52,686 bases of DNA from a virus (lineage: Duplodnaviria > Caudoviricetes). A program made the position numbers and the translations under genes. Shown piece by piece: positions 13,722 to 39,198 of this stretch. Under the pieces are notes generated by a model. That model ran no database searches. It was not told the origin of the DNA and saw only the letters and a program-made list of their open reading frames with translations. The stretch is from the IMG/VR virus record IMGVR_UViG_3300030333_003828, positions 1 through 52,686 of that record; one strand, written 5' to 3'. The number at the start of each line of letters is the position of its first letter. Position 1 is the stretch's first letter.

Positions 13722-14057
13722 ATGAAGAAAGTATTACAATTATTAAAAGATTCTGGCTTGACACAAGCCGTTTATGATTTTGTAACTTCTAATGCTTCTT
13801 ATAGGATAGGAGAATCCTCAAAGAAGAACGGCTTGAATATCTTCGGAATAAAAGCTTTTAATATGGCTGACATCAATCAGAACTATCCTGATGTTAAACA
13901 ATTAGTAGATAGCCTAAAATCCGCAGATATTAATGTTTCATATCTTAGAGATGAGAAGAATGAAACATACAAGTCAGGCATCTTGTACATTTCAGCTGGT
14001 CAAACAGATGATGATGTAGCAGATATGCTTGGGATGCAAATTGATAGCAATTCATAA
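13722..14057 (+). CDS. Early hypothetical protein
   Basis: TAAGGA RBS; first gene of the + arm; followed by a terminator. Confidence 0.75.
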   Translation: MKKVLQLLKDSGLTQAVYDFVTSNASYRIGESSKKNGLNIFGIKAFNMADINQNYPDVKQLVDSLKSADINVSYLRDEKNETYKSGILYISAGQTDDDVADMLGMQIDSNS

Positions 14058-14079
14058 GAATAGCAATCAAATAGCATTA

Positions 14080-14108
14080 AAAGGGAACTTATGTTCCCTT
14101 TATTTTTT
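14080..14108 (+). terminator. Rho-independent terminator
   Basis: AAAGGGAAC-TTAT-GTTCCCTTT followed by ATTTTTT. Confidence 0.8.
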
Positions 14109-14165
14109 AATGTTTAATTAGTGGTGGTTATGTAACAGTAGCCACCACATAACTATGAGGTAATT

Positions 14166-14498
14166 ATGAATAGATTAGATGTTATTGTAAGTAGTATAGG
14201 AATATTTTTATTATCTATACTAACTCTTAATCATTGGTATCGTGGCTTATATTATGAGCCTTTGGCTCTCTTGTTGTTAATTGTTATAAGCCCGACTATA
14301 TATCATTTAATGCGACTATTTTCTTCGGCTTTTCTCAATAATAAAAAGTCAGAAACGCAAACTCTACCAACTTCATTTGATGAGTATAAAGAAGAATGGA
14401 CAGAATATGTTCATCACGATTTTTGTAATACTTGTGGTTATGCTATGCAAGGTTGCGTATGCAAAGCCGTAGTAAATGAACCGACTGATAGTCAATGA
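14166..14498 (+). CDS. Early membrane protein with Cys-rich C-terminus
   Basis: GAGG RBS, two hydrophobic segments, CNTC...CVC. Confidence 0.7.
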   Translation: MNRLDVIVSSIGIFLLSILTLNHWYRGLYYEPLALLLLIVISPTIYHLMRLFSSAFLNNKKSETQTLPTSFDEYKEEWTEYVHHDFCNTCGYAMQGCVCKAVVNEPTDSQ

Positions 14499-14635
14499 AA
14501 GGAGAAAAGGATGAAAGCGTAATGTATGGTAAATGTTTCTATTGTGAAGAATATGGCGAGGGAATACTAATTATTCATTTAACATCGGAAGATGATGGAT
14601 ACGAAGTATTCTCTTGTCATAAATGTAATGATTAA
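14495..14635 (+). CDS. Small zinc-finger protein (start at 14495 or 14522)
   Basis: Not in the track. ...MYGKCFYCEEYG...FSCHKCND (CxxC...CxxC); ATGA overlap with the upstream stop. Confidence 0.65.
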   Translation: MKGEKDESVMYGKCFYCEEYGEGILIIHLTSEDDGYEVFSCHKCND

Positions 14636-14656
14636 ACAATGAAAGTGAGGTATATA

Positions 14657-14800
14657 GTGAAGTATAAAGTAATAAATCTATTAAATGGTGCGGTAACTGT
14701 AATCATAGCAAAAAATCTTTACCAAGCATCCAGAAGAGGTAAACGATATTTTAGTGAGCCTAACAGGGATAAAATACCTGTTCAAATAGTGAGTAATTAA
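14657..14800 (+). CDS. Small hypothetical protein (47 aa)
   Basis: Not in the track. GTG start with GAGG RBS: MKYKVINLLNGAVTVIIAKNLYQASRRGKRYF... Confidence 0.55.
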   Translation: MKYKVINLLNGAVTVIIAKNLYQASRRGKRYFSEPNRDKIPVQIVSN

Positions 14801-14801
14801 G

Positions 14802-14930
14802 ATGGATACATTATACGAAGTCTTATTTGCTCTTGATAGTATTATAACCATTATTTTGAAGATAATAGCAATTATAGCTTTAAATATATGGATTATTTAC
14901 TATAAAACTAGGTCTAAGACAGATGTTTAG
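14802..14930 (+). CDS. Small single-pass membrane protein (42 aa)
   Basis: Not in the track. MDTLYEVLFALDSIITIILKIIAIIALNIWIIYYKTRSKTDV; starts 1 nt after the upstream stop. Confidence 0.5.
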   Translation: MDTLYEVLFALDSIITIILKIIAIIALNIWIIYYKTRSKTDV

Positions 14931-14940
14931 GTCTAGGAAG

Positions 14941-15345
14941 TATTGCCCATATAAAACAAGATACGAATTGTTGGAATGGGCTAATAAGAGGTATCCTGAA
15001 ACCTCATTTAGTAAATGGTCAAAGAAAAGACTATTTGCACTTTACTATAATAGTTAATTCAGGTAGGCTACATAAAGCCATATATCCGCGGGCAAGTGTT
15101 ATTCCTCTATCATCCATTCGTATCTTGATAATGCATTTGTCCGCACAATTTTAAATGAGAGAGTTACGGCTAAAACCACCATTCGTTAAGAGGTTAATAA
15201 CAGTAATCTGATTAATCACCCTCAAGCGTGGTCTCTCTCATAGTTTTAAACTATGTACCTCATAGAATGTGGTAGATATTGACAGGCGAGTTTAGACAGC
15301 TTCCGCTAAAGGTTAAGCCAACTAACGAGGGTCAAGCTACCACAT
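14941..15345 (+). ncRNA. Candidate large structured RNA (unknown family)
   Basis: Continuous run of stems with G-U pairs that favour the + strand, plus two long-range pairings from hairpin loops (14957-68/15116-27; 14995-15000/15058-63). No long ORF. Confidence 0.6.
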
Positions 15346-15401
15346 AAATTTAAATGTTAACAGATAACAAGATAACGATAAAAAAAGGAGGGTTTGGTCA
15401 T

Positions 15402-15665
15402 ATGGCAAACTCAACAAGTAGTAAAAAGATAATGTATAATGATAATGGTGCTTGGGAAGAAAAGATAACTGAAGCAAAGACGGTAGGCGAGCTTAAAGTT
15501 GAGCTAAATATTCCTGATAATACTATTATTCAAATTACATCAGGAGTTGGAGATGATGCAACTGATGTAGCTTTAAGTAATAATACTGATTTATTACCAG
15601 ATGGTGGGGATAATCCAATGTATGTTGCTTGGCAAACAAATAATAAGACAGGCGGTAAAAAGTAA
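15402..15665 (+). CDS. Ubiquitin-like (beta-grasp) protein precursor ending GG-KK
   Basis: Start revised to 15402 (AAGGAGG RBS); 87 aa; AKTVGELKVELNI helix typical of Ub/ThiS folds; C-terminus NKTGG|KK; JAB and E1 genes lie downstream. Confidence 0.75.
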   Translation: MANSTSSKKIMYNDNGAWEEKITEAKTVGELKVELNIPDNTIIQITSGVGDDATDVALSNNTDLLPDGGDNPMYVAWQTNNKTGGKK

Positions 15666-15675
15666 AGTAAAATAA

Positions 15676-15821
15676 TTTAATGGGGGCAATAACTGGTCCT
15701 CAGTACGGTGATAGACTTTGAAGTCTGGACTACGATACTGGAAAATAAGCCCTATGTGAAGACAGGTGGTCTACACCGTAGACAGCAACATAGGCAAAGG
15801 AATATGTGAGTCCCCATTAAA
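15676..15821 (+). ncRNA. Candidate multi-stem structured RNA between the Ubl and E2-like genes
   Basis: 12-bp closing stem TTTAATGGGGGC/GTCCCCATTAAA enclosing the hairpins CAGTA..AGACT/AGTCT..TACTG and CCTATGT..GTCTAC/GTAGAC..ACATAGG. Confidence 0.6.
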
Positions 15822-15839
15822 ATGTAAAGGAAAAATAAG

Positions 15840-17465
15840 ATGAATTTAGAACTCGACTTAAAAGTAAAAGAAAATCCTTATTTGCAGTTTAGTAAGCCAC
15901 CATTTGAGAATAATACTATATACAATATGTATGATTATGAAATTGATAGTATGAATAACTTTTCATTACAGTCTATAGAAGATTTATTAGAAGAAATAGA
16001 TTTCAATGAATTTGTTAAGTATACTACGATGAAAGAAGTTATTGAGTTTAACAGTCAATTAGAACATATCAAAGACCATTACTCTTCATATTTCAATGAT
16101 TATGAATTAGAAGTTACTAAGGCATATAATTGGAAGCGAGGACTGTATGACGCTTTAAAACATTGGTATACTTTAAATGCTGACTTTCATAAAAGAAATA
16201 GTGGCGTAAGTACTTTCTTTAGAAGAATAGAATATAATAAATGGTCTTATAACAGGTTTAAAGATGCATTTATTAAACTAGACCTTCAAAGAATAAAAGC
16301 TAAGAAGTCTGTTGGACAAGTAGTAGATAATTTAGAAGAATTAATTGAGCGAAATCAGGAACAAATCGTTAAGATTAATGAAGAAACTGAAAAAGCTAAT
16401 AACTTCTCTCCATTATATACTATTAGTAATCACATAAAATGCAGAAGAGTCAACAATGAATCAGATTATACTAGGATGAGGTTAGTTACAGTAGTTATTG
16501 CTAAAGCAAAAACAATGTCTGTAATTGATAATAACAATAATGTATTGTACAAACTCCCTGTTCCTAAGTCATATTTATATTTTGACAGACCCTTTTATAA
16601 GGCGTTGAATTATAACTATAGAAATAGGTCTGATATTAGAACTTTTGCATCTTCTCCAGGTGGAAAACATCCATACATACAAATATATGGTAGATATCCT
16701 TATTACCAGCGAGGTATTACATCAAGAAGGAATGAATCTAGATTGCATGATATGAGTACTGGTACATGGAGCACATTGTGTTTATCAAACTTTGCTGATG
16801 ATATTTTAAATGCATTAAATAAAAATGATTATTTATCATTTGTTCATTCAATATCATCATGGAATGGTATATACAATAAAGATTACACTACTCCATACAA
16901 TTCACCAATGACATCTTTTTATATTACAGGTATTCCTAATAATGATGATGCTGAAAGCATCAGAAGATTATCTGGCTTTAAAACAAGAGATTGTTTTATA
17001 GATAATTTAAAAAGAAGACAAATCGTAGAGTCTGATAATCATATAAGAGAAATATATAACACTCGTGTAGAATTAAATATGTTCTTATATGGTAATGATG
17101 TTGCTCAAGAATGTGATGCTAAAAAGTGTCCATTTAGAGAGAGTTGTACTGGATATAAATCATTAACAGAAATAGATGATGATTACTATTTTAGAATAGA
17201 ATCTTTAGTTGGAGCTATGGAAGAAAGTAATTTAGCTACAACTAATATAGAGTCAAGCTCACATATTACTAGATTAACTAGAGTATACTATGATACAGTA
17301 TCTACTTTAATGAGATGGGAGCATGATGTTGATGATTTAATAGTTCAATATCTAGAAAACATAGAATACTGGGGTAAACCTAAACCATTAACTGCAGAAG
17401 AAAGAGCTAATTTATGGATGGCGAGCAATTCTGAACATCCTAGCTCTCAACCTGCTAACCAATAA
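15840..17465 (+). CDS. Putative prokaryotic E2-like conjugating enzyme (multi-domain)
   Basis: HPY (H277) ... STLCLSN (C314) followed by amphipathic helices and PYN, resembling the prokaryotic E2 HP..CLG pattern; lies between the Ubl and JAB genes. Confidence 0.5.
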   Translation: MNLELDLKVKENPYLQFSKPPFENNTIYNMYDYEIDSMNNFSLQSIEDLLEEIDFNEFVKYTTMKEVIEFNSQLEHIKDHYSSYFNDYELEVTKAYNWKRGLYDALKHWYTLNADFHKRNSGVSTFFRRIEYNKWSYNRFKDAFIKLDLQRIKAKKSVGQVVDNLEELIERNQEQIVKINEETEKANNFSPLYTISNHIKCRRVNNESDYTRMRLVTVVIAKAKTMSVIDNNNNVLYKLPVPKSYLYFDRPFYKALNYNYRNRSDIRTFASSPGGKHPYIQIYGRYPYYQRGITSRRNESRLHDMSTGTWSTLCLSNFADDILNALNKNDYLSFVHSISSWNGIYNKDYTTPYNSPMTSFYITGIPNNDDAESIRRLSGFKTRDCFIDNLKRRQIVESDNHIREIYNTRVELNMFLYGNDVAQECDAKKCPFRESCTGYKSLTEIDDDYYFRIESLVGAMEESNLATTNIESSSHITRLTRVYYDTVSTLMRWEHDVDDLIVQYLENIEYWGKPKPLTAEERANLWMASNSEHPSSQPANQ

Positions 17466-17474
17466 GGAGTAAAT

Positions 17475-18419
17475 ATGGAATTTATTATTAGTCAGAAAGC
17501 ATGGGATACCATGCAACAGTACGCTGGGATAGCTCATTCAAAAGATGGTAATGAGATATCTGGCATGTTAATAGTAAAGAAAGCAAAGCATCCAGTCACA
17601 AATGACGATGTATTTGAATTATGCGAACCTTCAATACTAAAACAAGAAAATACAGGTACTAGTACGGAATTAGATGCTGATGCTCTACGTAAATATTATA
17701 TAGAGACAGTAAAAAAGCATGGTTCTGATATTAGATATTGTTGGTGGCATTCACATCATACAATGGATGCGTTCTGGAGTACAACAGATGAAAAAGAAAT
17801 TAAAGCATGGAAGAATAAGTCATGGTCTTCTGCTTTAGTTATTAATTTAAGAGGCGAATACCTCTTAAGAATATCTGTTTGGAATCCAATTGAATCACAT
17901 GAAGATGTTCCATTAGAAATAATAAGAGATATTGCTGAGCCAAGCAAGAAAATGCTTAAAGAATATGAAGAATTATGCTCTAAGAAAACTTATGTATCTC
18001 CTGTTGTTACTAATGGATATGGACGTACTAGGAACTGGCAACAAAAAACTTTGTTTACTGCACAAGTCAATCCACTAGAAGATACAACAAAGCTTGAATG
18101 GAACGCATCTGATAGTCCAGAGATGTATTCTGAATTATTAGATGCTGTAGATTCAGAGCTGGAAAGATTGCATTCGTCTTTAATTAAGGGTGAAAAGAAG
18201 TTTAATGAATATAAAAATGAAGTAAAAGCTTTGAATGCACACTTAAAGAAAAGAAATGCTAAGTTTTCTATTAAATCCATAACAAAAAGTAAGATAGATG
18301 ATATTATGTTTAATGTATCAAGAGATTATATTCAATTTGATGATGCGCAGACAGAAGCATTATATGACCAAGTTGATGGATTAGTAAACTATGGAGGATA
18401 TAACTATGGCTGGCATTAA
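17475..18419 (+). CDS. JAB/MPN+ (JAMM) metalloprotease
   Basis: N-terminal E (NEISG) and an exact HxH-x7-S-x2-D motif, WWHSHHTMDAFWSTTD. Confidence 0.9.
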   Translation: MEFIISQKAWDTMQQYAGIAHSKDGNEISGMLIVKKAKHPVTNDDVFELCEPSILKQENTGTSTELDADALRKYYIETVKKHGSDIRYCWWHSHHTMDAFWSTTDEKEIKAWKNKSWSSALVINLRGEYLLRISVWNPIESHEDVPLEIIRDIAEPSKKMLKEYEELCSKKTYVSPVVTNGYGRTRNWQQKTLFTAQVNPLEDTTKLEWNASDSPEMYSELLDAVDSELERLHSSLIKGEKKFNEYKNEVKALNAHLKKRNAKFSIKSITKSKIDDIMFNVSRDYIQFDDAQTEALYDQVDGLVNYGGYNYGWH

Positions 18420-19077
18420 CATGCGTAGTGAAGGTTTAGTAAACAATCTTCATGAATATACATTTCATATCTTAGGTTGCGGAGCTATTGGTAGCTCTGC
18501 AGCCACTCAATTAGCAAGAGCTGGAGCAGAAAAGTTCTTGCTATATGATATGGATGACGTAGCAACAGAAAATATCGGAGTATCACAGTATTCTGGCGAA
18601 CATATAGATATGAAGAAAGTAGAAGCTCTTAATGAAATTCTACTTGGGATTAACTATAAGTGTAATATTATGATGTATCCAGAATATTATAATATGTTTC
18701 GATATCAAGACAATAATGATATTGTAATTCTAGGCTTTGATTCTATGAAATCTAGAAAAGAAGCTGTAGAAGATATATGCAGTAATAAGCGTACCAAACC
18801 TTATTTACTCATAGATGGCAGAATGGGTGGCGAACATTATCAGCAATACGTATTTACAAATGTAACACTAGCTAATTATCTTAAAACGTGGTATTCTGAT
18901 GAGGATGGCGACCCAGAGCCATGCAATGTCAAGGCAACAACATATTGTTCTAATATGGCAGGTTCTTTCATTGTAAATGCTATCAGGAAAATAGTGACTA
19001 AAAGTCCTTATGAAAAGGAATTGACATTTAATTTTCCTAGCATGACACTACAAAAAAATACTTGCTTACCAGTATGA
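18406..19077 (+). CDS. ThiF/E1-family adenylyltransferase (Ubl-activating enzyme)
   Basis: GCGAIG, LYDMDDVATENIGVSQY, KKVEAL, GFDS and IDGRMGG motifs; candidate catalytic Cys in PEPC. Start moved from 18391 to 18406 (GGAGG RBS). Confidence 0.92.
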   Translation: MAGINMRSEGLVNNLHEYTFHILGCGAIGSSAATQLARAGAEKFLLYDMDDVATENIGVSQYSGEHIDMKKVEALNEILLGINYKCNIMMYPEYYNMFRYQDNNDIVILGFDSMKSRKEAVEDICSNKRTKPYLLIDGRMGGEHYQQYVFTNVTLANYLKTWYSDEDGDPEPCNVKATTYCSNMAGSFIVNAIRKIVTKSPYEKELTFNFPSMTLQKNTCLPV

Positions 19078-19090
19078 CATAACGTATATT
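19062..19090 (+). promoter_or_regulatory. Sigma70-like promoter for the replication module
   Basis: TTGCTT-17-TATATT with an upstream A-tract. Confidence 0.55.
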
Positions 19091-19125
19091 GATAGTTCCC
19101 TAGCAACCTCTGTTAGGGAATTATC
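19091..19125 (+). other. 15-bp hairpin between the E1 and AAA genes
   Basis: GATAGTTCCCTAGCA-ACCTC-TGTTAGGGAATTATC (two G-U pairs). Confidence 0.7.
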
Positions 19126-19151
19126 GTTATCTAAAATGCAAAGGAAAAACA

Positions 19152-19826
19152 ATGAAACTAAAAAAAGAAAAGAGGAAAGCTGTGTCTATTAATCCTTCCA
19201 CTCTTTTACTATACGGAGCTCCAAAAGTAGGTAAAACTACTATGTTATCTCAGTTAGATGATTGTCTAATTATAGATACTGAGAAAGGTAGTCGTATGGT
19301 AGAAGGTTACATACAGGAAGTGAATAGTAGAGACGAGCTCATAGAAACTCTTATAGCAATAAAAGAAAGTAAAGATGTTAAGTATAAGTATATAGCTATA
19401 GACACTATAGATAAAGTAGCTGAATGGGCTGAAAGAAGAGTCTGTGAGGAAGAAGGTGTTAATTCTATAGCAGACTTAGCTTTTGGTAAAGGTTATGGAT
19501 TAGTAAGAGAAAAAGTAGCTAAAACTATATCTCACTTTAAAGAAGTAGCTGAACATCTTATCATTATTGGACATAGAAAAGTAGCTTATGCAGTTACAGA
19601 AGGCAATCCTATAGTTATACCAGAATCATTAGATTTAACTGGTAAACTAAAGAATGTTATCATGGCTGGATGTGATGCTATTGGTTATGTTTATCGTAAT
19701 GACAAAGAAGAGCTAATGGTATCATTTAAAGCAAATGATGCTATAGAGGCTGGTAGTAGATGTCCTCACTTAAAAGGTAAGGATGTTAAATTTCAATGGA
19801 ATAATATATATAAGGAGAAAAAGTAA
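19152..19826 (+). CDS. AAA_24/Sak4-like phage NTPase (recombination)
   Basis: YGAPKVGKTT, IDTEKGS, IAIDT and CDAIGY motifs. Confidence 0.85.
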   Translation: MKLKKEKRKAVSINPSTLLLYGAPKVGKTTMLSQLDDCLIIDTEKGSRMVEGYIQEVNSRDELIETLIAIKESKDVKYKYIAIDTIDKVAEWAERRVCEEEGVNSIADLAFGKGYGLVREKVAKTISHFKEVAEHLIIIGHRKVAYAVTEGNPIVIPESLDLTGKLKNVIMAGCDAIGYVYRNDKEELMVSFKANDAIEAGSRCPHLKGKDVKFQWNNIYKEKK

Positions 19827-20414
19827 ATGGCTATTTTTAGACCAGAAGAAAAGAAATCTTCAGGAAGTCCCTATTTGGGAGTTATTGAAGTAGGTATTAT
19901 TGGGTTTAGTAACAGAGCAAAAGAATTTGACTTTGCTGATATTTTTATAGAAGTTGAATTGTCTGTTAAAGGTAGTGAATATAGCAATAAAATGGCTATT
20001 CTGGGAAGTTTAGATAAAGATGCATCTGGCAATATTACAGGTGGGTCTGTCTTAAATAGAATGTATAAGTTATTTGATGCTATTGGTTGTAATGCAGGTT
20101 TAAATGTGCAGGGTGTATTTGAGGATGAGAATGGAAACACAATTGATGATATAGCTACATATTTAAACGAAAGATTCACGACTACAGGCGAACAATATTC
20201 AGCTTATTCATATAAGAAAAAGCCAAAGCCAGGTAAGAAGATATATACTGAGATTTATCCAAGGTTATATCCTAATACAGCAGAAGGTAAGGCTCAATGT
20301 CAGCAAGATACAGATTGGTTAAAGGGTAAAGGTGTTATTAAAGAAGCAGATGCGAGTGATATGCCTCAACAGAATGATACTCCTTTAGCAGCTAATGCAT
20401 TGAACAATCTGTGA
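19827..20414 (+). CDS. Putative single-stranded DNA-binding protein
   Basis: Between the Sak4-like ATPase and the primase-helicase, the usual SSB position; flexible C-terminal tail. Confidence 0.5.
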   Translation: MAIFRPEEKKSSGSPYLGVIEVGIIGFSNRAKEFDFADIFIEVELSVKGSEYSNKMAILGSLDKDASGNITGGSVLNRMYKLFDAIGCNAGLNVQGVFEDENGNTIDDIATYLNERFTTTGEQYSAYSYKKKPKPGKKIYTEIYPRLYPNTAEGKAQCQQDTDWLKGKGVIKEADASDMPQQNDTPLAANALNNL

Positions 20415-22180
20415 ACTACGTAGAGATAGCAGTGGGTTCCCCTAGGAGTAGGGGAACTCTGGTATTGAAGTCTGAACTTCACAAATATATACCACTTGAT
20501 GGTACGGCATTGTATCGTTCTGTTTATCTCTATGATAAGGATGCGAAAGAATACGCAGACTCAAAAGGTACTTTAAAAGGCTACCAGGGAGAACGAGGTA
20601 TTGACAATGTTTTAATTGATATAGACAGAAAAGATAATTCTGACGACTATACACTAGCTAAATTAAGAGAAACTCTTAATCATCTAGATATACTTGAAGT
20701 GCTTGACGAGAGCATTCAATGTTATTTTAGTGGCACAGGATATCATATCGTTATATCAAATAAAGTATTTAATTTTGTTCCTTCTGGTAGTTTACCTTAT
20801 CAAGTAAAAAGAACAATGTCGTCATTGTTCAATAATATTGATACAAGTATCTATATGAGAAGTGGAATATATAGAGTTGCACATACTAAGAATCAAAAAA
20901 CAGGACTCTATAAAATTCCAATAACATTGCGAGAATCAAAATCCTTATCATCAAAAGAAATACATAAATTAGCTACTGAACCCAGATTTGAATATCCATA
21001 TGAATTATTAGATGGAGATGGGGAGTTAGAAACAGCTGTTTGCACAGAAACGCCCAAAGTTGCCGAATTTACAAAGATTTCCGAGCCAACCAAGGTAGTA
21101 CCCTGTGTACAAACAATGTTGCGAAATGGCCCCATAGAGGGCTCTAGACACAATACTGCCCTTAGAATCATTAGTCACTTTAAAAGACATGGGATTCCAA
21201 GTGAGTATGCAAAAGTAGCTTTATTACATTGGAATAACAATACATTAAACGAGCAAAAAATGATTGAAAAAGTAGAATCCGTATACAATGGAAACTATAA
21301 TTACGGATGTCAAGATGTGCTTATGAAGAAGTATTGTCAGACAAAATGTAATTTCTTTAAAAACAAGGATTATCACATACATGTTAAAGATGCAGATGAA
21401 CTACAAAAAGAGTTTCAGGAAAGAATAGAAACTAATTTTGTAGGCAGAGCAATCCCATTGACAGAAATGTTTGGGTTAACAAACTATGATACTCAGATAT
21501 ATCCAGGAGAGTTAGTAACTATATTTGGGCCCACAGGCTCAAATAAGACTACTTTAGCTCAAAACTTAGCACTAGGAGTTGATTTTAAAAATGACAGAAT
21601 CAACAAGAAGTGGCAACTACCAACGCTGTTCCTATCTTTAGAGTTATCTGCCTGGTATATGCATAGAAGACATTTGCAAATCGTCTCTGGTTTATCCAAA
21701 GATGAAGTAAATGATAATTATAAAGAAATTTATAATGATTATGCAGACCAATTAAGGCATTTACAGATACAAACAGTTTCTCCAACTTTATCTTCTATAC
21801 AAAATAAGATAAAAGAATTAAATCCAGCTGTTGTTATAGTGGATTACATAGATTTAGTAGAGACACCTCAGAATATTAGAGGAGAATACGAACAAATAAA
21901 GTTTGTCTCTCATAGCTTATCTAGTTTAGCTGTAAATCTTGATGTAATAATAATTCAAATATCTCAAGTTAGTAGAGAGTATAGTAGAAATGAAGTACTT
22001 GATTTATATGCAGGTAAAGGCTCAGGAGCCATAGAAAATGCGTCACGTAAAGTGATTGGATTAAATGGACAAGCAAATAGTGACATAAAGCATATACATA
22101 TGTATAAAAATACAGATGGAGAATTATTCGATACAAAGGTTGAATGGCGAGAAAGCTTTAGATTAAGGAGAGTCGAATGA
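20411..22180 (+). CDS. AEP primase-polymerase fused to a DnaB-like helicase
   Basis: IDID, FSGTGYH, IYRVAHTKN, PCV/EGSRHN; C-terminal GPTGSNKT, LSLEL, VDYIDL, ISQVSR and SGAIEN. Confidence 0.88.
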   Translation: MNYVEIAVGSPRSRGTLVLKSELHKYIPLDGTALYRSVYLYDKDAKEYADSKGTLKGYQGERGIDNVLIDIDRKDNSDDYTLAKLRETLNHLDILEVLDESIQCYFSGTGYHIVISNKVFNFVPSGSLPYQVKRTMSSLFNNIDTSIYMRSGIYRVAHTKNQKTGLYKIPITLRESKSLSSKEIHKLATEPRFEYPYELLDGDGELETAVCTETPKVAEFTKISEPTKVVPCVQTMLRNGPIEGSRHNTALRIISHFKRHGIPSEYAKVALLHWNNNTLNEQKMIEKVESVYNGNYNYGCQDVLMKKYCQTKCNFFKNKDYHIHVKDADELQKEFQERIETNFVGRAIPLTEMFGLTNYDTQIYPGELVTIFGPTGSNKTTLAQNLALGVDFKNDRINKKWQLPTLFLSLELSAWYMHRRHLQIVSGLSKDEVNDNYKEIYNDYADQLRHLQIQTVSPTLSSIQNKIKELNPAVVIVDYIDLVETPQNIRGEYEQIKFVSHSLSSLAVNLDVIIIQISQVSREYSRNEVLDLYAGKGSGAIENASRKVIGLNGQANSDIKHIHMYKNTDGELFDTKVEWRESFRLRRVE

Positions 22181-22380
22181 AAGGTTGGGTTTTAAGTATA
22201 ATAATAGAAGAGAATTTGTTTATGTTAGAATTTTTCAAAACATTTAGAGTGGGATTAGCTGCAATAAATGATTTATCTGGTAAAGCTATGTCAGTTATAA
22301 TTGGAATATGGAAAGCAGAAACAAATATTACCTTAGCTATAAGAAAAAAGCTAGAGTGGCACGATGTCGGTGAAGCGTAG
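22177..22380 (+). CDS. Hypothetical protein
   Basis: ATGA overlap with the helicase stop; AGGAG RBS. Confidence 0.6.
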   Translation: MKGWVLSIIIEENLFMLEFFKTFRVGLAAINDLSGKAMSVIIGIWKAETNITLAIRKKLEWHDVGEA

Positions 22381-22837
22381 AACCACTAAGCGTATGAAGT
22401 TTTGGGAAGACAAGTTCTTCCCAAAGCTTAAAAAACATCATGGAAATAGAGCGAAAGGGATATTTCATAGGCTTATGAAAAAATCATCGACTCTAAGAAC
22501 ATCATTAAAAAGGAGGAGTAGAGAGTATGAAGTGGTTTTTAATATCAGCCTTAAGGAAATTAGAAATCTTATATATTCCGAGTATGGAAGAAAATGCAAG
22601 TATTGCAAAGATATTCTTAAGATTAACAATATGGTATGTGACCATTGTATTCCTATTAGCCATGGCGGTGATTCTACTCCTAAAAATCTTCAAATGATAT
22701 GTTCAAGATGCAATACAAGAAAAGGTCCTTTGACAGACAAGGCTTATATTAAGTTATTAGCTTGGTTAAAAAGGCAGAATAAAAATACAAGAGACTATAT
22801 TTTAAGAAAATTAGCAAGAAGTGATGTATTTAAATAA
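22364..22837 (+). CDS. HNH endonuclease
   Basis: CKYC...DHCIPISHGG...NLQMICSRCNTRK. Confidence 0.9.
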   Translation: MSVKRRTTKRMKFWEDKFFPKLKKHHGNRAKGIFHRLMKKSSTLRTSLKRRSREYEVVFNISLKEIRNLIYSEYGRKCKYCKDILKINNMVCDHCIPISHGGDSTPKNLQMICSRCNTRKGPLTDKAYIKLLAWLKRQNKNTRDYILRKLARSDVFK

Positions 22838-25881: not shown

Positions 25882-26117
25882 AATATTATTTTATTCTTTT
25901 GGTAACATTTCATAGTATAGAAGAAATATATACTTGCAATAATCCAAATACCTTAGGAAATGAAAATATACATATGCTTTGTAATTGGAATGATGATGAT
26001 TTTATACAATACCCCGACGGGGAAAGACTCTTAAGACCGAAAAGAAAAAAAGATAACTTTATTAAAGCTTATTATAGGAAAAAGTATTGGATTAATAAAA
26101 TGAAGTACCAGGAGTAG
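25878..26117 (+). CDS. Hypothetical protein with signal-peptide-like N-terminus
   Basis: Likely start MKYYFILLVTF (ATGA overlap, GAGG RBS); last + arm gene, overlaps the RNAP stop. Confidence 0.45.
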   Translation: MKYYFILLVTFHSIEEIYTCNNPNTLGNENIHMLCNWNDDDFIQYPDGERLLRPKRKKDNFIKAYYRKKYWINKMKYQE

Positions 26118-29100
26118 GAGCTGTATATCCCTCTTCCTTCCTTTTCTCTCTATCCTTTTTAGCCTTACTTAAACCAATCATTGGTAATCCAGTCCATTTA
26201 TCTATTACAGATAAAGGATTATCAATAAGGTTATTTTTAGAACCAAAATCTCTCGCTATCCTTCCAAATGGAAACATTGTATATATATAATAGTCAGATA
26301 CTCTTGACCAATCATCTTCTAGCATAGCTCTCATGGAAGCCATAGGCATTCTAGCGATAGGAGGTGTTATCATTTGCAATGGAGCTACAGCTGTAGGCCA
26401 TTGACCAAAGAAAGCTCTATTTCTTTCTTTTTCATCTCCAAATACCCAATCAGCTGTATCCTGGAACCAGTTCCAAGGAGCTGGCATTGCTGTTTCAAAT
26501 AAAGAATAAGCAAAAGCATTACCAAGAGAGAATACAAATAAGTCCATTTGCATCATTCTTGCAGCTCTTTCAGCTTCAGCTCCTCTAAATCCATACATTC
26601 TAGCTTGTCTTAATGCTTCTTTCCTAAATCTAACTGCATTCCATCCCCATAATTGAAATCTAGTCATAACTTTACCAAGAGCTGTTCTTGCAAACATTGG
26701 TCTATATGGAGCAGAATATAAAAACTGAGTTGCTGCTACACCTTTTTTTGCTAATTTAATTAAAATTGGATGGTCAAAGTCTTTAATAGCACCACCAAAT
26801 TTTCTATACCAATGTAAATAATGAGCCATAAAAGCATCTCTTCTCAAGGCTCTTTCAGGGACAGACATAAACTTAGCTGCAAATTCCATTACAGGTTTAG
26901 TAATTTCACTCTTTTTAGCCATATCAATGACAGACTTTTCACTAAGTTCAGGGTCAGCCCTTAACTTTCTAGCAACACCTTCAATAAATTCTTTATTTTT
27001 AGATGATTGATACTCACGCATCAATCCATATTCTTCCATCATTTGCTCTGGGAAAACACCGTGTTTTACAGCCATATTATCCCTACCCTGCTTAGTAGCA
27101 AATTCAGGGTTAATACTCTCCATATACTTGTTATTTCGGGCAGAACGCCATGTTTCAAAGCCAACAGACTGGATAGTATGCATAGTACCACCAAATATAT
27201 TAGCTACCATAGACTTTGGATGGGCCAATAGTGATGCTAACTCAAATTTAGCTTCAAGATTGCTCCAGTTCCTCATGTCTTCAGCAGTGAAACCTCTTAA
27301 TTCCTTTGGTAAGTCTTTATTTAAAACACCAATAGTTTCAGCAATCTTATTAACTCTGTCTCTAACTCTATTATCTGCCCACCAACCGTATGGAGTTGCT
27401 CTCATTTTCATTTTAGGGTCATTTAATATATGCTCAGGAACTATATCAGGATTCCCAATTGCACCTTGAACATATAATTTCATAAAAGTAGTCCAAGCTT
27501 CTTGCTGTTCTTTGGGAACTTTTCTTTTGTACATAGATTCACCAAATTTATCAATAGCATCTCTACTAAATACTTGAGCCATCTGCCTATAATATGAGTT
27601 AATAATAGATTTAGCATAAGCCATAGGCACTTGTCTATCTAGTGAATATCCTGGGATATGAGCTTCCCTTGACATAGTAGAGCCAGGCTTAGTGATATTA
27701 TTTATCCACCGTATTTTAGCTTCATTTTGCTCCTTTTTAGAGCCAATTTTAGCTTGAACCTCATCTAACCCTTTCCATCCTTCAATATCTTGAAAATTCC
27801 AATCTCCAGTAAGAGCATGATGTCTATATACTATCTTTTTAAGAACATCATTAGTTTCTTTTTCAGATAATTCAGAAGTTCTTAAATTTTTAGCATATTC
27901 TTTTAGACCTTTAAGTGCACTGCCTTTGTCAAAATGCATATGCATCCAATAATTCTCAAAAGGAATCCTACCAGTAGCAGAAGAAGGAGAGTTGTAAAGC
28001 AATTCCAATTCTTCTTGAGTTAAATCTTTATTTTTTCTGCCCATTTCAATCATCATAGAGCGAACAATTTTATTCATCCCATCAACACCAAATTTAGTTG
28101 GTATTGCATCTCCATGAGCAAAAGCTCTTTTCATATCATTAGAAAACTTTTCAATATCTATAATAGGATTTTGCTGCTTTTTATCGTAATAACCTGTTTT
28201 AAATTTCTTTGACAAGGGATGGTTAGGCTGTGTATTAATTAACATATAACCACTATTCTTTTTGCCGCTTGTAAAACCAGGAATACCCTCTATAATAGAT
28301 GTAGGAATAACAGCTACTTGTTCTTTTTTACCATCTATAGTCACTGTTTTAGTCATAGTCTGACCTCGAGCATCAAGTACAACATCACCACTTATATAAT
28401 CTTTAAACATTCTTTCAAAAAATTTAGTATAAGTATCATTAATTCGGTCAATTAATTGTTCTCCAGTAATTCTTTCTCTAACAGGTTGCCCTTCTTTTTC
28501 CACTGTAATATTATATATTTTATTTTTTAAACTTTTTTCATAATCATAAGCTTTAATAATATTATTGTATAAGTCTTTATAATGTTTGACTTCTGCAAAT
28601 TTCTTATTATTATCTTTAGATTTGTCAGACATTATCCTAGAAACTTCTCCAAGTTGTCTTTTTGCGACAGCAATTTCGTGCAGTCCTTTAGAATCTGAAA
28701 TTGTATCTAAAAATATTAAATCCTTTGCAAGTCTATGAACTTCTTCATCACCTTTACCAATAGCCGCATCATTAGTTAAAGACACTCCACTTTTAATCTT
28801 ATCCATGTACTGAGTTGGTGTAATAATTCTACCCATTTTGTTAATACCATCAGCAGTTAAAAACATTCCCTGTTCTTGCATTAAGACTATTTCATCCTTC
28901 ATTAATTCACGATTAATAGTCTCAGGAAACTGCATGTAATGTCTTTCTGATAATTTAGTAAATTCTCCTTTAGACAGACGTTGCCATAATGTCCCTCTCT
29001 TTACGTCATCTAGCCAATTTTTCAAAGCAAACCAATCTGCTTTATTTAGTATATTAATATCTTTACGCAATAGACTACGAACAATGCCACCAAATTCTTG

Positions 29101-32100
29101 CAATACTTTTTTGTTTTCTGTCTTTAAATGAGTTAATATATCATTAATATAACCCTTAGTCTCAGGGTCTAACTCTACTTTTTTAAACTCTTTTACACCT
29201 TCCCAGCCAGTACTTGTAGTGAATATACCTTCTACTTTTTCATTACCTTTCTCTGGGAATCCTTTTTCTATATTTTCTTGTTTCTGTGGTTCTTCAGTAA
29301 TTAATTTACCTTCTTTACGTATTTGCTCTGGAGCCCTCTGTTGAGATGTTTCGCTATAAATATTGAGCATTTCACCTAAAAATGCACTTCTAGACTCCTT
29401 AGGTATAGCAGCACTACCATAACCCAATCTTGAAGAATCTGTTCTAGCTGTTTCTTTGTATAAATCTTCTAATTCTTTCTGTTCTTTATCTGTAAGTTTT
29501 GTTTTTGCTTTTAATTGCTCTAGTCTCTTTAAGTTACCCCTATTTAAAGAGCCTAGCATTAAAGTATCAAATAATTGTTGTTCTAAGGCAGACTTGCCTC
29601 GCTTCCATTTTCTAATAGCGTTATCAATTTGAGCTTGGTCAGCATATTGAGTACCTTCAGTTTTCATCATCTTACGAATAAAAGATTTTTTAAATCGCTC
29701 TACATTAGTTGGGTCTGACTCATTCTTAGCATCTCTCATTAAGTAACTATTAATTTTTAAAGCTTGAACTTCAAAGTTTGTATCTCTAATGATTTTATTT
29801 ATAGCTGCATCAGATAGCTCGGGGTTAGCTTCTTTCATAGCATCAATAATACGAGAAACTCTAGTAACTGTTACAAGATTTTCAATATCTTTCATTACAA
29901 AGTCACCAGCCATTTCTTTTACTTGATTTAATGCTTCAATTCTGTCTTCTATTCGACTGTAATCTTTTTTCTTATCCCATTTAGTTCTTTTCCCACGCAT
30001 AGCACCACGAGTTTTTTCATATTCCATTGGAGTACCTTTAATAATATCATTAAAGATAGCTTCATTTTGTACAGCTCTATCAAATCCAGCAGGGCTTAAC
30101 AAGTCATGCTGGATTGATTTTAGTATATATTTCCCTGTAATAACTCTAAAAGTACTTCTTTGTAATGCCTGTTTAAGATAATCATACTTACCAATAGCTA
30201 AATCATATTGGTCAAATAACTCTTTAAAACGACCTTCAAATTGATTTGTTTTAGAATTATATCGTAAATCTACCTTTCTTAAAGCATTATCAGAATAATC
30301 TAATCCATGTAGCATTTTAGATATTTTAGGAGTAATAGTATTCAGCTGTTCGTCAGGCATTTCTGCCAATTCTTTAGTTAATTTTCTTCTTTCTTCCATA
30401 GACCATTGTCTGTCTTTGGTATAATCCTTACCATAAAAAGCAGAGTTAGCATCAGTTAAAGATTTAATAATACCATTATTCCTGATATAAGTCATTAGTC
30501 GCCCTGTTGGCACTCTCTTAGATGTTTCAATGTTAAAATGAGCATTAACTAGAGCTCGATACCAAAATTGATATCCTTTCATACCAGCATAATCCATTGG
30601 GTCAGAAGATAATCCAATCATTGCTCGAGAAAGTTTTCTAATGTAATCTTTTTGCTTAGCATTTGTCTTGGGCGTTATAGTAATGTCTATAGTATTACCA
30701 TATTTATCTTCTACAGAATATGTATCGCCACCTGTTTTAATCATCATATTGTAAGCAGCAGACAGTAAATTCTTTTGAGTAACAGCAGTACCTAATAAGC
30801 CTCTACCACCGACAGCAGCTTCTGACATCTGCATTCGTACATTAGGAGCATAAACAGCTTCTGGACTATCAATTAAATTCTTCTCTGCTGAAGAATATTT
30901 AGTAGTAAGTAAATCTATAGCCCATTGTGGTTTATTGCCCACTACCTTCCCTTGAGCATCATAATATTCTTCTTTATTGGCCTTAAACATATCCTTCCAT
31001 GACTTTTTAAAACCACCTTTTCCACCCATATAAAAATAGGCAGAATCTCCATCAAGGTCAGCACCGCCTAAAGCTTCCATCGCTCTAGAATGCATAAGTA
31101 TTCCATGTCCTTCTCTACCTGTAAACCCAGAGAACCTTAAAACCTGAGTACCAGATATAGAGTCCATAGGCACTCTCATTACGGCAGACCGAAATGTTTC
31201 TTCTAATTCTTCCTTTACTTCTTTGTTAGGCCTAGTAGAATTTTCGTTCTTTTCATACATCTCCCATAAATCACGTAACTTTTTACGACCAAAAGATTCT
31301 GTCTCTATAAACATATCTTCATAAGCTTTATCTAAAAAGAATAACTCATCATTTTTATCTAGCTCTTTTAATCTTTTATTTACCTTATCTAAGTCTTGCT
31401 TTAATCCTTCATCATAAGGTCTCATTCTTGCAGCACCAGAATTGACTATTTTAGGTTTTGTAGCTTGATTTAAAATATAACTAGACAATACTTTCTGTCT
31501 AAAAGAATTGATAAAGGGGTGAACATATATACCAGCTTCATTTTCTGGCTTATTCTTAGAAATAGCATCAGCTCTTGCGTCAGATATCATTCTATCAGCT
31601 AATGAATTATATTCTTCTAGCTCTTTATTTTGTGATTCATACTGCTTATCAGTTATATCTCCATTCTGATAATCCTCTTCTAAAGACCTTTTTTTATTTT
31701 TTAACATTTCCTGATAGGCTTTATTGATAAATAATTGATTGCCTGATTTATTAAGTGCAGATAGAATTTTAGATAAACCTATACTATTAAAATCTAAAGC
31801 ATCTAACTCTTTAATTAATTCCTTATTTGATGCTGTAGGAAGTTTTTCTAAATACTTTTCAAGTGCTTCATTTCCTTCTTTTGTACCTCTAAATCTTGGT
31901 TCAATGACAGAATCAAAAATATCTTCAACAACTTTTTGCATTCCAGTTCCATCTTTTAATTTAGGACTAAATGCTAAAGCTTCAACGAGGTTGGTAAGTA
32001 TTTGCTTTTTAATAGTCTGAGGCTTAATCATATCTGCCCCTTGCTTTACGCCATAGCTAAATCTAATATGCTCGGGATTTAATTCATATTCAGTGTAAAA

Positions 32101-37131: not shown

Positions 37132-39198
37132 TTACGAGCCATCATCTATAGTTTCAGGTAATGCTGTTGCCTTTACAATAAATGGTGGATAAGATACACC
37201 ATGAGAACTTCTATATCCATAAGCAAGATAAGCAGTTTTAGTACTTCCTGCCGTTGAAAATCCTATGTAAAATGTATTGCTCGAGCCGACAGATGCTAAT
37301 TCACTGGCACTTAATACCCATTTCACTGTAAGTATATCATCATCTGCCTCATCATCACTTAAGTACACACCAGCAAAATCATACTCAAATTGTCCGCCTA
37401 TAGAATTGTATGTACTACTATCACTAAGGCCAACATCTAAATTTGTGTCAGTAGATGTAACATTAATAAAACAACTTAATTCTATTTCTACATTTTCACT
37501 TGGCGGTGTTTTAAATGTTATTCTATGCACTGCATCTTCTACCGTCATTGAGTCTTGTATTTCAAATGTATCTGTCCCATCAGTAGGTTGCAAGTAGGTA
37601 TATCCCAATATCATACCTGCATAAGCACTGTTAGCTGCACTAAATTCGGTTCCACTCTTTTGAGCTATAAATTTTCCAGTTTCTGAATTTAAAGTAATAT
37701 CGCCATCGGCATTTAATGTAAAATCAGCACTATCTGAATCAGCATCAACAGTCGTTATTGTTGTAGCGCCAGCAGCCATTGTTGCAATTGTACAATAATC
37801 AGATGCATTAGCGGAGCTATGTATTTTAATATCTTCTCTACCAGTTGCTCCATCTGGGGTTGTAATAGCTAATCCCACATGGTCATCTGCCCCACTTACA
37901 TTTAATTCAATGCCTGTTGCAGTATGAGTTCCTGTAGTGGCTCCTACTACATCAATATCCATTCCTTTAACGCTAGAAGTACCCAAACTAGCAGAATTTA
38001 TATCTAAGTCAATACCTATATCATTATGAGCATTAGTGCCTGAAGAAGCGACCGTTCTGTCAAAATCAACTTGCAATCCTGTAGCATTTTCTGCGGCATC
38101 TCCAGAAGTATTTTTATCTATTGTTAATGCTCCTGCCATTGTATCATCAGCATCATTAGTAACATAATTTGTAGGCTGAGAATAATTACTTGCATGTATT
38201 GTCCCTGCACTTGATGCTGTCCAATCTATATGCTCATTAGCTACAAAGTTATTTAAACTATCATGGTCTATTTCGCCAGGAACTGCTGCAACTGTTATGG
38301 TAGTACCACTATTAGTAACTCCTGCACCATTTGCCCCTAATATAGAGAAATCAGCAGAACCTCCAGTATCTGTAGCAGCAGAGCCACCACCAGAGTCAGT
38401 AGTGATAGTTACTCCAGTAATATCTCCTGCAATGTCAGATGTCAAAGCAATAGTTCCACTTGCATCGGGACATTTTAAAGTTCTAGTCTGCCCATCAGTG
38501 ACTAAGCTTAAGTCAAAATCCATTCCTTTGCCAGTAGTAGAACTATTATAAAAAGCGAGATTATTATCTGCCATTTTTAATTTTAAACCTCCTGGCCCAG
38601 TATCTATGACACCAGAATCGTTCATCATAACTGTATGATAGGTAGCACTTCCATCATGAACGGTTAAGAATTTATTACCATGAGTAGAGTCAGAACCTTT
38701 TCCAATTTCATTAGTGGCAGATGCAACAGCAGAAACTTTAACTTTTTTAGCATGAACTATAGCATCAGAGGTATCAGTTGAATTTCTTACCTTTAATGTG
38801 CTTCCTTCATTTTTTAGGATAATTTTCTTTCTATTTGGTGATTGTAATAATACATTGCCTCTAGAGTTGTATTTTAACGCTTCTTTATTAGCAATGTGTC
38901 TTGAATTGCTTTGAGTACCTTCATTAGGTCTTAAGCCACGCTTATCAGCAGAAACCAAACAAGAATTAATATCTACCTGCCATCCTATATTTGTATACAT
39001 AGCTATAGATGTAGAGCCATCAGGATTATTTACATATGTAGTAGTTCCTATTGTTGGTGTTGATGTGGTAGAAGCAATATCCGTAACCTCAATAGGTTGT
39101 AATTCTTCTATCTTGTCGTATACATCATTTAGTGCATTATTTACTTCTGGAATGCTTACGGATTTTCTAGTTACCCTTTTATTGCGCTTAATAGCCAT
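37132..39198 (-). CDS. Tail fibre/spike protein
   Basis: T/S/A/D-rich beta repeats; TRTLKCPDASGTIALTSD fibre motif. Confidence 0.7.
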   Translation of the reverse strand: MAIKRNKRVTRKSVSIPEVNNALNDVYDKIEELQPIEVTDIASTTSTPTIGTTTYVNNPDGSTSIAMYTNIGWQVDINSCLVSADKRGLRPNEGTQSNSRHIANKEALKYNSRGNVLLQSPNRKKIILKNEGSTLKVRNSTDTSDAIVHAKKVKVSAVASATNEIGKGSDSTHGNKFLTVHDGSATYHTVMMNDSGVIDTGPGGLKLKMADNNLAFYNSSTTGKGMDFDLSLVTDGQTRTLKCPDASGTIALTSDIAGDITGVTITTDSGGGSAATDTGGSADFSILGANGAGVTNSGTTITVAAVPGEIDHDSLNNFVANEHIDWTASSAGTIHASNYSQPTNYVTNDADDTMAGALTIDKNTSGDAAENATGLQVDFDRTVASSGTNAHNDIGIDLDINSASLGTSSVKGMDIDVVGATTGTHTATGIELNVSGADDHVGLAITTPDGATGREDIKIHSSANASDYCTIATMAAGATTITTVDADSDSADFTLNADGDITLNSETGKFIAQKSGTEFSAANSAYAGMILGYTYLQPTDGTDTFEIQDSMTVEDAVHRITFKTPPSENVEIELSCFINVTSTDTNLDVGLSDSSTYNSIGGQFEYDFAGVYLSDDEADDDILTVKWVLSASELASVGSSNTFYIGFSTAGSTKTAYLAYGYRSSHGVSYPPFIVKATALPETIDDGS

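Follow-up and report, generated by a model that had tools for sequence, protein, structure and literature searches.

In HCV, 5BSL3.2 (SL9266) kisses a stem-loop of the 3′ X-tail through a helix of about 7 bp that has a role in replication. In MS2 and Qbeta, the long-distance Min Jou interaction pairs coding sequence of the upstream gene with a site farther downstream, which in MS2 is the ribosome-binding site of the replicase gene. In hok/sok-type mRNA, a fold-back (fbi-tac) between the 3′ end and the 5′ part locks the message of a small protein. We present here a structured RNA element from a marine virus for which these appear to be the closest architectures. It lies in a complete linear virus record of 52,686 bases (IMG/VR record IMGVR_UViG_3300030333_003828; 35% G+C), the whole of which was analyzed and is called the window below. 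Comparison with relatives supports well a domain of ~225 nt that comprises a 44-aa protein gene, orf44 (14923 to 15057, + strand), and two following hairpins, H0 and H1, joined by two long-range helices.

As in HCV, the loop of a coding-region hairpin would pair with the loop of a 3′ untranslated hairpin of the same RNA, in competition with translation. HCV is the genome of a eukaryotic RNA virus, whereas the element belongs to a dsDNA phage mRNA, with a helix of 9 to 15 bp, a span of about 150 nt, and no conceivable role in replication. MS2 and Qbeta offer a second likeness, an internal coding sequence that pairs with a distant downstream site, so that translating ribosomes open the pairing and alter downstream expression. 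The MS2 partner is a ribosome-binding site, whereas here the coding sequence pairs with a hairpin loop that lies about 60 nt beyond the stop codon and precedes the next start by about 275 nt (about 180 nt without a 95-nt insert). The resemblance to hok/sok is that of a small-protein message locked by 3′/5′ pairing, but hok is a membrane toxin with an overlapping antisense RNA gene, while the pairing here lies inside coding sequence, the orf44 peptide is basic and hydrophilic, and it has no known antisense gene. A hok/sok-like toxin mRNA was rejected, as the peptide, with its many Lys, Arg, Tyr, and Trp residues, is not a hydrophobic membrane peptide. SgrS/SgrT and RNAIII also combine, in ~230 nt, a ~40-aa protein with selected RNA structure; these are stand-alone small RNAs with trans targets, whereas the element sits in an operon-like row and its only supported target is itself. 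By this analogy, the element would work much as HCV, MS2, and hok do while being a member of none of these groups.

Literature searches on phage kissing-loop and long-range coding-sequence structures found nothing alike for dsDNA phages among the matches listed. Fremin et al. (2023) reported 10,006 candidate structured RNAs from IMG/VR, identified by covariation in viral intergenic regions (PMC10690425). As far as its abstract and outline tell, that catalogue shares our data source and our type of evidence and may include parts of the element region; since it screened intergenic regions, a half-coding fold may have been missed. Compared with that abstract and outline, the element appears to be an undescribed RNA structure of a long-range type, half of it coding, and by our interpretation translation coupled.

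Genome setting

The window encodes an SU10-type capsid protein, a P22-type portal, and a terminase. The portal shares less than 24% identity with any isolate (best 15 of 44 matching records). DNA of the window was found almost solely in marine metagenome runs, and a blastn search of 14800 to 15400 against 50,697 phage records gave no match. A search of genome contigs gave one match, which lies on a 10.7-kb MAG contig, and therefore no host is inferred. The one RNA run analyzed yielded a single 160-nt contig, spanning 14499 to 14655 only and thus outside the element. The genome is podovirus-like (52.7 kb) and holds two giant ORFs on the − strand, at 26092 to 34677 and 39198 to 46838 (2861 and 2546 aa), for which no PHROG family was found at an E value of ≤1e-5.

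Every gene from 13722 to 22837 lies on the + strand. The gene at 13722 to 14057 is followed on its 3′ side by a canonical intrinsic terminator (14080 to 14101, +; 9-bp stem, 4-nt loop, and U-run) and then by a perfect hairpin at ~14121 to 14148. The element forms the end of a row of small ORFs, ~260 nt 5′ of a cassette (15402 to 19077, +) that encodes a putative ubiquitin-like (Ubl-like) protein of 87 aa, a 541-aa protein, a candidate JAB protein, and ThiF/E1. This location agrees with a preliminary description, made from the sequence alone, which had placed the element upstream of a Ubl cassette. The putative Ubl-like protein has its probable start at 15402, behind a strong ribosome-binding site, and a C-terminal Gly-Gly-Lys-Lys; no Pfam family matched it. 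The Cys-rich 541-aa protein belongs to no family; a search of 5.8 billion clustered proteins gave only four homologues (30 to 93% identity). ThiF/E1 is matched clearly (E value, 4.4e-20) and JAB weakly (E value, 5.7e-4; 20.2 bits, under the 25-bit cutoff).

A protein gene in the element

orf44 covers the first 117 nt of the element (14941 to 15057), and its RNA supplies the 5′ half of the fold. Its start overlaps the preceding ORF within the operon-like row. With the peptide as the query, tblastn found 13 distinct loci with identities down to about 50%, and a scan with the family alignment found 35 viral loci with amino acid conservation down to about 35 to 50% identity. An ATG-started ORF is intact in 13 of 13 sequences, with 44 to 54 codons in all but one, which has 91. 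Over 36 aligned codons and with the window as the reference, dN/dS is 0.04 to 0.39 in 10 of 11 measurable comparisons and 0.82 in L025; L060 is saturated and not computable. The corresponding dS values are about 1 or more, often >1. The closest relatives (L001, L003, and L004) differ from the window in orf44 mainly at synonymous sites. Family conservation, intact ORFs, and low dN/dS together identify orf44 as a real protein-coding gene, which these comparisons place under purifying selection.

Pfam and PHROGs searches with 12 members of the orf44 family gave no family below an E value of 0.03. The AlphaFold model of the protein has two short helices (pLDDT, 82.2), and a Foldseek search of this model against the PDB gave no match at an E value of ≤0.001 (best E value, 8.9).

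The preliminary description had taken the element for a free-standing noncoding RNA. That reading fails, as 14941 to 15057 lie inside a conserved 44-aa gene under purifying selection, and the same comparisons give good support to the view that the element is a structured part of an mRNA rather than an RNA gene of its own.

Fold of the element

All features of the fold are on the + strand. Hairpin A (14941 to 14950 / 14976 to 14986; core stem, 14945 to 14950 / 14976 to 14981) presents in its loop arm 1 of the kissing helix (14957 to 14968), which is made of codons 12 to 16 of orf44. Arm 2 (15116 to 15127), the exact complement of arm 1, is the 3′ half of the loop of H1 (15088 to 15144), a hairpin with a 12-bp stem (15088 to 15099 / 15133 to 15144) and a 33-nt loop. 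The conserved 5′ half of this loop (15104 to 15115) contains CCUC (15104 to 15107) and AUCAUCC (15109 to 15115). The second long-range helix is 6 bp long and pairs codons 25 and 26 (14995 to 15000) with the bases directly 3′ of the stop codon (15058 to 15063). Hairpin C (15011 to 15038), with a terminator-like stem of 10 pairs, lies within the coding sequence, and H0 (15066 to 15079) lies between the second helix and H1. These stems and pairings had been drawn in the preliminary description and were confirmed at these positions, including the extension of the arm complementarity to 15 of 17 nt, for which our repeat search gives 17 nt with 88% complementarity.

The minimum-energy fold of 14935 to 15150 contains hairpin A, the stems at 15011 to 15038 and 15066 to 15079, and H1. 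On the + strand, this region folds with −61.8 kcal/mol (z score, −5.17), and none of 200 shuffles is as stable; on the − strand, the z score is −1.05, and 26 of 200 shuffles are as stable. Arms 1 and 2 are the sole exact 12-mer inverted repeat within 250 nt across the window. In dinucleotide shuffles of the window, such repeats number 2.21 on average, and 79 of the 100 shuffles contain one or more. The 12-nt complementarity taken by itself is therefore no rarer than chance, and the case rests on relatives.

Searched with Rfam 15 at gathering thresholds, the whole window gave no match, in keeping with the earlier remark that the family was not recognized. At an E value of ≤10, the stretch from 14600 to 15500 gave four matches, all with E values of ≥1.8 and with 15.9 to 21.9 bits against thresholds of 55 to 88; no ribozyme family was among them.

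Covariation in relatives

A search with the 541-aa protein gave L001, L003, and L004, which are near identical and too close for covariation, and a distant fragment, L005. The relatives usable for covariation came from the orf44 family scan. The subfamily with both H0 and H1 consists of the window, L004, L025, and L047 to L060; several of these loci are on the same contigs as L001, L014, L017, L018, and L044. Most relatives come from a few marine sample series and are not fully independent.

Across the subfamily, codons 11 to 16 of orf44 and the 3′ half of the H1 loop are complementary, although the sequences differ by lineage. Eight sequence variants of the arm pair, 9 to 15 bp long and some with G-U pairs, occupy equivalent positions. 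The helix has 12 bp in the window, 11 bp in L004, and 10 bp in L048, L056, and L060. With one G-U pair each, it has 12 bp in L025, L049, L052, L053, and L055, 15 bp in L054, and 9 bp in L050. Where amino acids differ at arm 1, the H1 loop is altered to match, and arm 2 lies within the H1 loop in all sequences folded. The stems of H1 are wholly different between lineages and retain their complementarity. As the dN/dS values are low at a dS of about 1 or more, the complementarity of the arms has outlasted saturating synonymous change.

The pairing was compared with two null models. When the arm 1 zone (alignment columns 25 to 52) was scored against 5,000 shuffles of the H1 loop of the same sequence, pairing was significant in 10 of 13 sequences (P ≤ 0.008) and not significant in L057 (P = 0.48), L058 (P = 0.99), and L059 (P = 0.80). 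When ORFs and flanks were permuted among 11 of the 13 sequences (near-duplicates L004 and L052 left out), several of which have similar arms, the matched helix-score sum was 109.5, against 93.9 ± 4.6 for permuted pairs, and 6 of 20,000 permutations reached 109.5.

A MAFFT alignment of 13 sequences was made after near-duplicates (L047, L051, L053, and L055) and duplicate contig copies had been left out. In this plain alignment, which was not fitted to the structure and has some loops visibly out of register, 79.7% of the cells are paired, compared with 32 to 44% when partners are slid by one to three columns, and the covariation score is 0.290, compared with 0.189 for shuffled alignments (0 of 500 reach 0.290). 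Double-sided changes occur in 9 of 12 pairs of the H1 stem (88.4% of cells paired), 5 of 12 pairs of the kissing helix (73.1%), 3 of 6 pairs of the second helix (84.8%), and 4 of 4 pairs of H0 (79.5%). Hairpin C has double-sided changes in 1 of 10 pairs, with many G-U pairs (71.5% of cells paired), and its comparative support is weak. Hairpin A has such changes in none of 6 pairs (85.9% of cells paired); its stem consists of conserved Cys-Pro and Trp-Ala codons and therefore has no independent support at the RNA level. In L048-type relatives, as read from the alignment, the partner in the second helix is shifted and takes in the stop codon.

These compensatory changes, found in homologues upstream of Ubl cassettes as the preliminary description had proposed to check, bear out both long-range pairings and the secondary structure. 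By this comparative evidence, the kissing pairing NEVERTHELESS is under selection. Complementary loops are kept by compensatory change, as expected of a kissing loop, with the stem of hairpin A inseparable from coding constraint. Selection at the RNA level on the + strand, also part of the preliminary description, is upheld by the covariation and by G-U pairs in the kissing helix of the L049 type, L050, and L025; together with the one-sided fold stability, these G-U pairs point to RNA of the + strand and away from a DNA inverted repeat.

L003 is an exception of another kind. A deletion there fuses the 3′ two-thirds of orf44 in frame to another upstream ORF (L003 positions 1560 to 1810), so that arm 1 is lost while arm 2 is unchanged. 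No substitute for arm 1 was found in L003 within about 4.9 kb. The pairing therefore seems dispensable at least briefly.

H1 and the proposed switch

H1 was considered as a canonical intrinsic terminator. The 12-bp stem with its G+C-rich base fits, but the 33-nt loop and the weak U tail do not. The tail has four U's after a 4-nt spacer (two to five U's in relatives), and a terminator scan found six terminator-like sites, H1 not among them. A leader-peptide attenuator was likewise rejected, as the peptide is a conserved protein family and the partner of the ORF in H1 is the loop rather than the stem.

Of 13 H1 loops, all but that of L048 contain CCUC or an extended CCUCC, and AUCAUCC or a near variant stands immediately 5′ of arm 2 in most loops (both by eye). 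In sense, CCUC and CCUCC agree with the anti-Shine-Dalgarno end of 16S rRNA and could therefore pair with a ribosome-binding site. Gene order follows the hairpins. Among the 35 viral loci, a Ubl-like gene lies downstream in 13 of the 14 loci L047 to L060, which have H0 and H1, and the exception, L056, ends at the contig end; it lies downstream in none of L061 to L081, which have the small gene and no H1.

We put the probability at roughly 55% that the domain is a cis-acting, translation-sensitive mRNA fold that controls the translation or stability of orf44 and is probably coupled to the downstream operon. That the fold regulates, in which direction, and on which target is our interpretation of its arrangement. 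In the fold, the loop-loop helix of 12 bp connects the 3′ half of the H1 loop with codons 12 to 16, which hairpin A displays, and the second helix joins codons 25 and 26 to the bases just past the stop codon. A ribosome on orf44 must melt both helices, so that fold and translation would be mutually exclusive. When closed, the domain would limit the translation of orf44 and shield the 3′ side of the message; when opened by a ribosome, it would free the H1 loop, including its anti-Shine-Dalgarno-like CCUC, and the freed loop would couple orf44 translation to expression of the Ubl-like/JAB/E1 operon. The preliminary description had suggested a ribozyme, a decoy, or a regulatory leader. The last of these fits best, as the Ubl-like gene follows, whereas a ribozyme or decoy finds no support in an Rfam ribozyme match or in an invariant core beyond short loop motifs.

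More specifically, the domain may be a translation-sensing kissing-loop switch in which ribosome traffic on orf44, or the protein binding its own kissing complex, gates the ubiquitin-like conjugation operon. The switch would be one module in a set of exchangeable structured RNA cassettes (H1, the 95-nt insert, and a motif at 15265 to 15347) that marine podophages shuffle between gene leaders. We give this fuller proposal a rather low probability.

Alternative explanations

The fold could act in trans, with H0-H1 released by processing or by termination at H1 as a 3′-derived small RNA whose loop serves as an antisense seed on the orf44 coding region. Such a molecule would resemble known antisense regulators in exposing its seed, arm 2, in the large apical loop of a stable hairpin, and both the covariation of the arms and the short U-containing tail behind H1 are consistent with it. 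We nevertheless regard it as unlikely. A sigma-70 scan gave 11 sites against 13.1 expected, none of them suitably placed, and no promoter or processing site could be assigned. The second helix, moreover, spans the stop codon and covaries too, which favors one continuous molecule.

H1 might instead be a mere hairpin for processing, stability, or weak termination between transcription units, with a loop complementarity of little or no function. The strong, covarying stem at a gene end would suit such a role, the L003 and L057 to L059 lineages manage without the arm pairing, and the chance expectation of a 12-mer repeat in the window is not low. Against this stand the eight different arm pairs, with P values of ≤0.008 in 10 of 13 sequences, which would be unexpected without selection given a dS of about 1 or more; H1 also has neither the short loop nor the U-tract of an intrinsic terminator. 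On balance, this explanation has a small chance of being right.

Long-distance pairings drive recoding in some plant RNA viruses, and the long-range helices here could likewise cause stop-codon readthrough or frameshifting. The second helix does bracket the stop codon, and a stable structure lies right 3′ of it. However, no slippery heptamer was seen before hairpin A (read by eye), and no extended frame is conserved past the stop codon, where the flank consists of covarying hairpins with indels that are not multiples of three. Recoding is thus very improbable. Just as hard to sustain is a free-standing noncoding RNA or ribozyme in which the ORF is incidental: dense structure, a strongly negative z score, and the lack of a known family match would suit it, but all 13 sequences retain the ORF, 10 of 11 measurable comparisons give a dN/dS well below 1, and no ribozyme family appears even at an E value of ≤10. 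Least probable of all is a DNA-level inverted repeat serving as a protein-binding or recombination site, to which the exact 12-bp inverted repeat might point, since the G-U pairs of the helix in several lineages are A-C mismatches on the other strand, the arms vary in length and register and lie in the loops of covarying hairpins, and good folding is restricted to the + strand.

Pairing of arm 2 with a copy of arm 1 in the Ubl leader (15367 to 15373, within 15366 to 15374) was also considered and rejected; this match is 7 to 9 nt long, occurs only in the window, L004, L048, and L052, and is absent where the arms differ.

Neighboring structured modules

Between orf44 and the start of the Ubl-like gene lie 345 nt that hold further structured modules, and those outside the element may belong to the same leader. 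The first is a hairpin of 95 nt (15149 to 15243, +) whose ends are inverted repeats of 8 nt and which is flanked by a direct repeat of 7 nt. The window and L004 carry this insert, and L001 and L003 lack precisely these bases. In two metagenome runs, contigs pass over it and show seven shared letters at the joint. Its conserved ends enclose other interiors in L011, L026 to L029/L034, L051, and L056. In one run, the word depth of its 5′ part is 545- to 970-fold, compared with about 10 in the flanks. The insert has the appearance of a mobile, MITE-like structured cassette.

The second module is a widespread phage RNA motif (15265 to 15347, +), a long hairpin with a covarying outer stem that is also present in loci L007 and L012 to L046. 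An exact two-part pattern found it in 36 viral stretches. The outer stem has double-sided changes in 6 of 7 pairs, and two asymmetric internal loops are conserved. The 12 + 16 nt of the core are invariant, partly as a consequence of the pattern-based retrieval. The apical insert is hypervariable, with 15 to 45 nt (about 55 nt in the second copy of L028), and identical apical inserts occur on different outer stems. At least a dozen different genes have the motif 10 to 60 nt upstream of their ribosome-binding sites. A covariance model found it once in the window and, as a rule, once per locus, and Rfam gave no match to the motif. A stretch of 18 nt is shared between the two modules: in the window (15193 to 15210), the 95-nt module has it as its tip, and in L003, L004, and L007, it is the tip of the 15265 to 15347 motif. 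The same tip on both indicates that apical inserts are exchanged between the two scaffolds.

In the window, L018/L048, L025, L044, and others, a small conserved hairpin with an anti-Shine-Dalgarno-like loop (15251 to 15265, +) is located between H1 and the widespread motif. The 10 nt of its core are exactly complementary to 14153 to 14162, where the gene that starts at 14166 has its ribosome-binding region. As a phage promoter, a 10-nt motif before 15266 was considered and rejected: it has two exact sites in all, and four sites were found at ≤1 mismatch where 4.74 are expected. The second of the exact sites is the complement of the ribosome-binding region. A hexamer within 15279 to 15284 was rejected as a −35 box, as no −10 box stands at a fixed distance in the variable inserts (by eye).

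In contigs of three metagenome runs, other short sequences (24 or 38 nt) take the place of the spacer between the Ubl-like gene and the gene for the 541-aa protein (15700 to 15798, +), and L001 has a different, longer insert there. The spacer is a third variable structured module between conserved ends.

Significance

Translation-sensing long-range RNA-RNA contacts are textbook knowledge in RNA viruses and, to our knowledge, are barely documented in the mRNAs of dsDNA phages. The element provides a compact case of ~225 nt, backed by covariation, in which a protein-coding sequence doubles as half of a selected RNA fold, and it is small enough for direct testing with compensatory mutants. With half of its structure inside a gene, it also calls for caution toward screens for structured RNAs that cover intergenic regions only. 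As the element stands in front of a phage Ubl/JAB/E1 cassette, it may show how this cassette is timed in infection.
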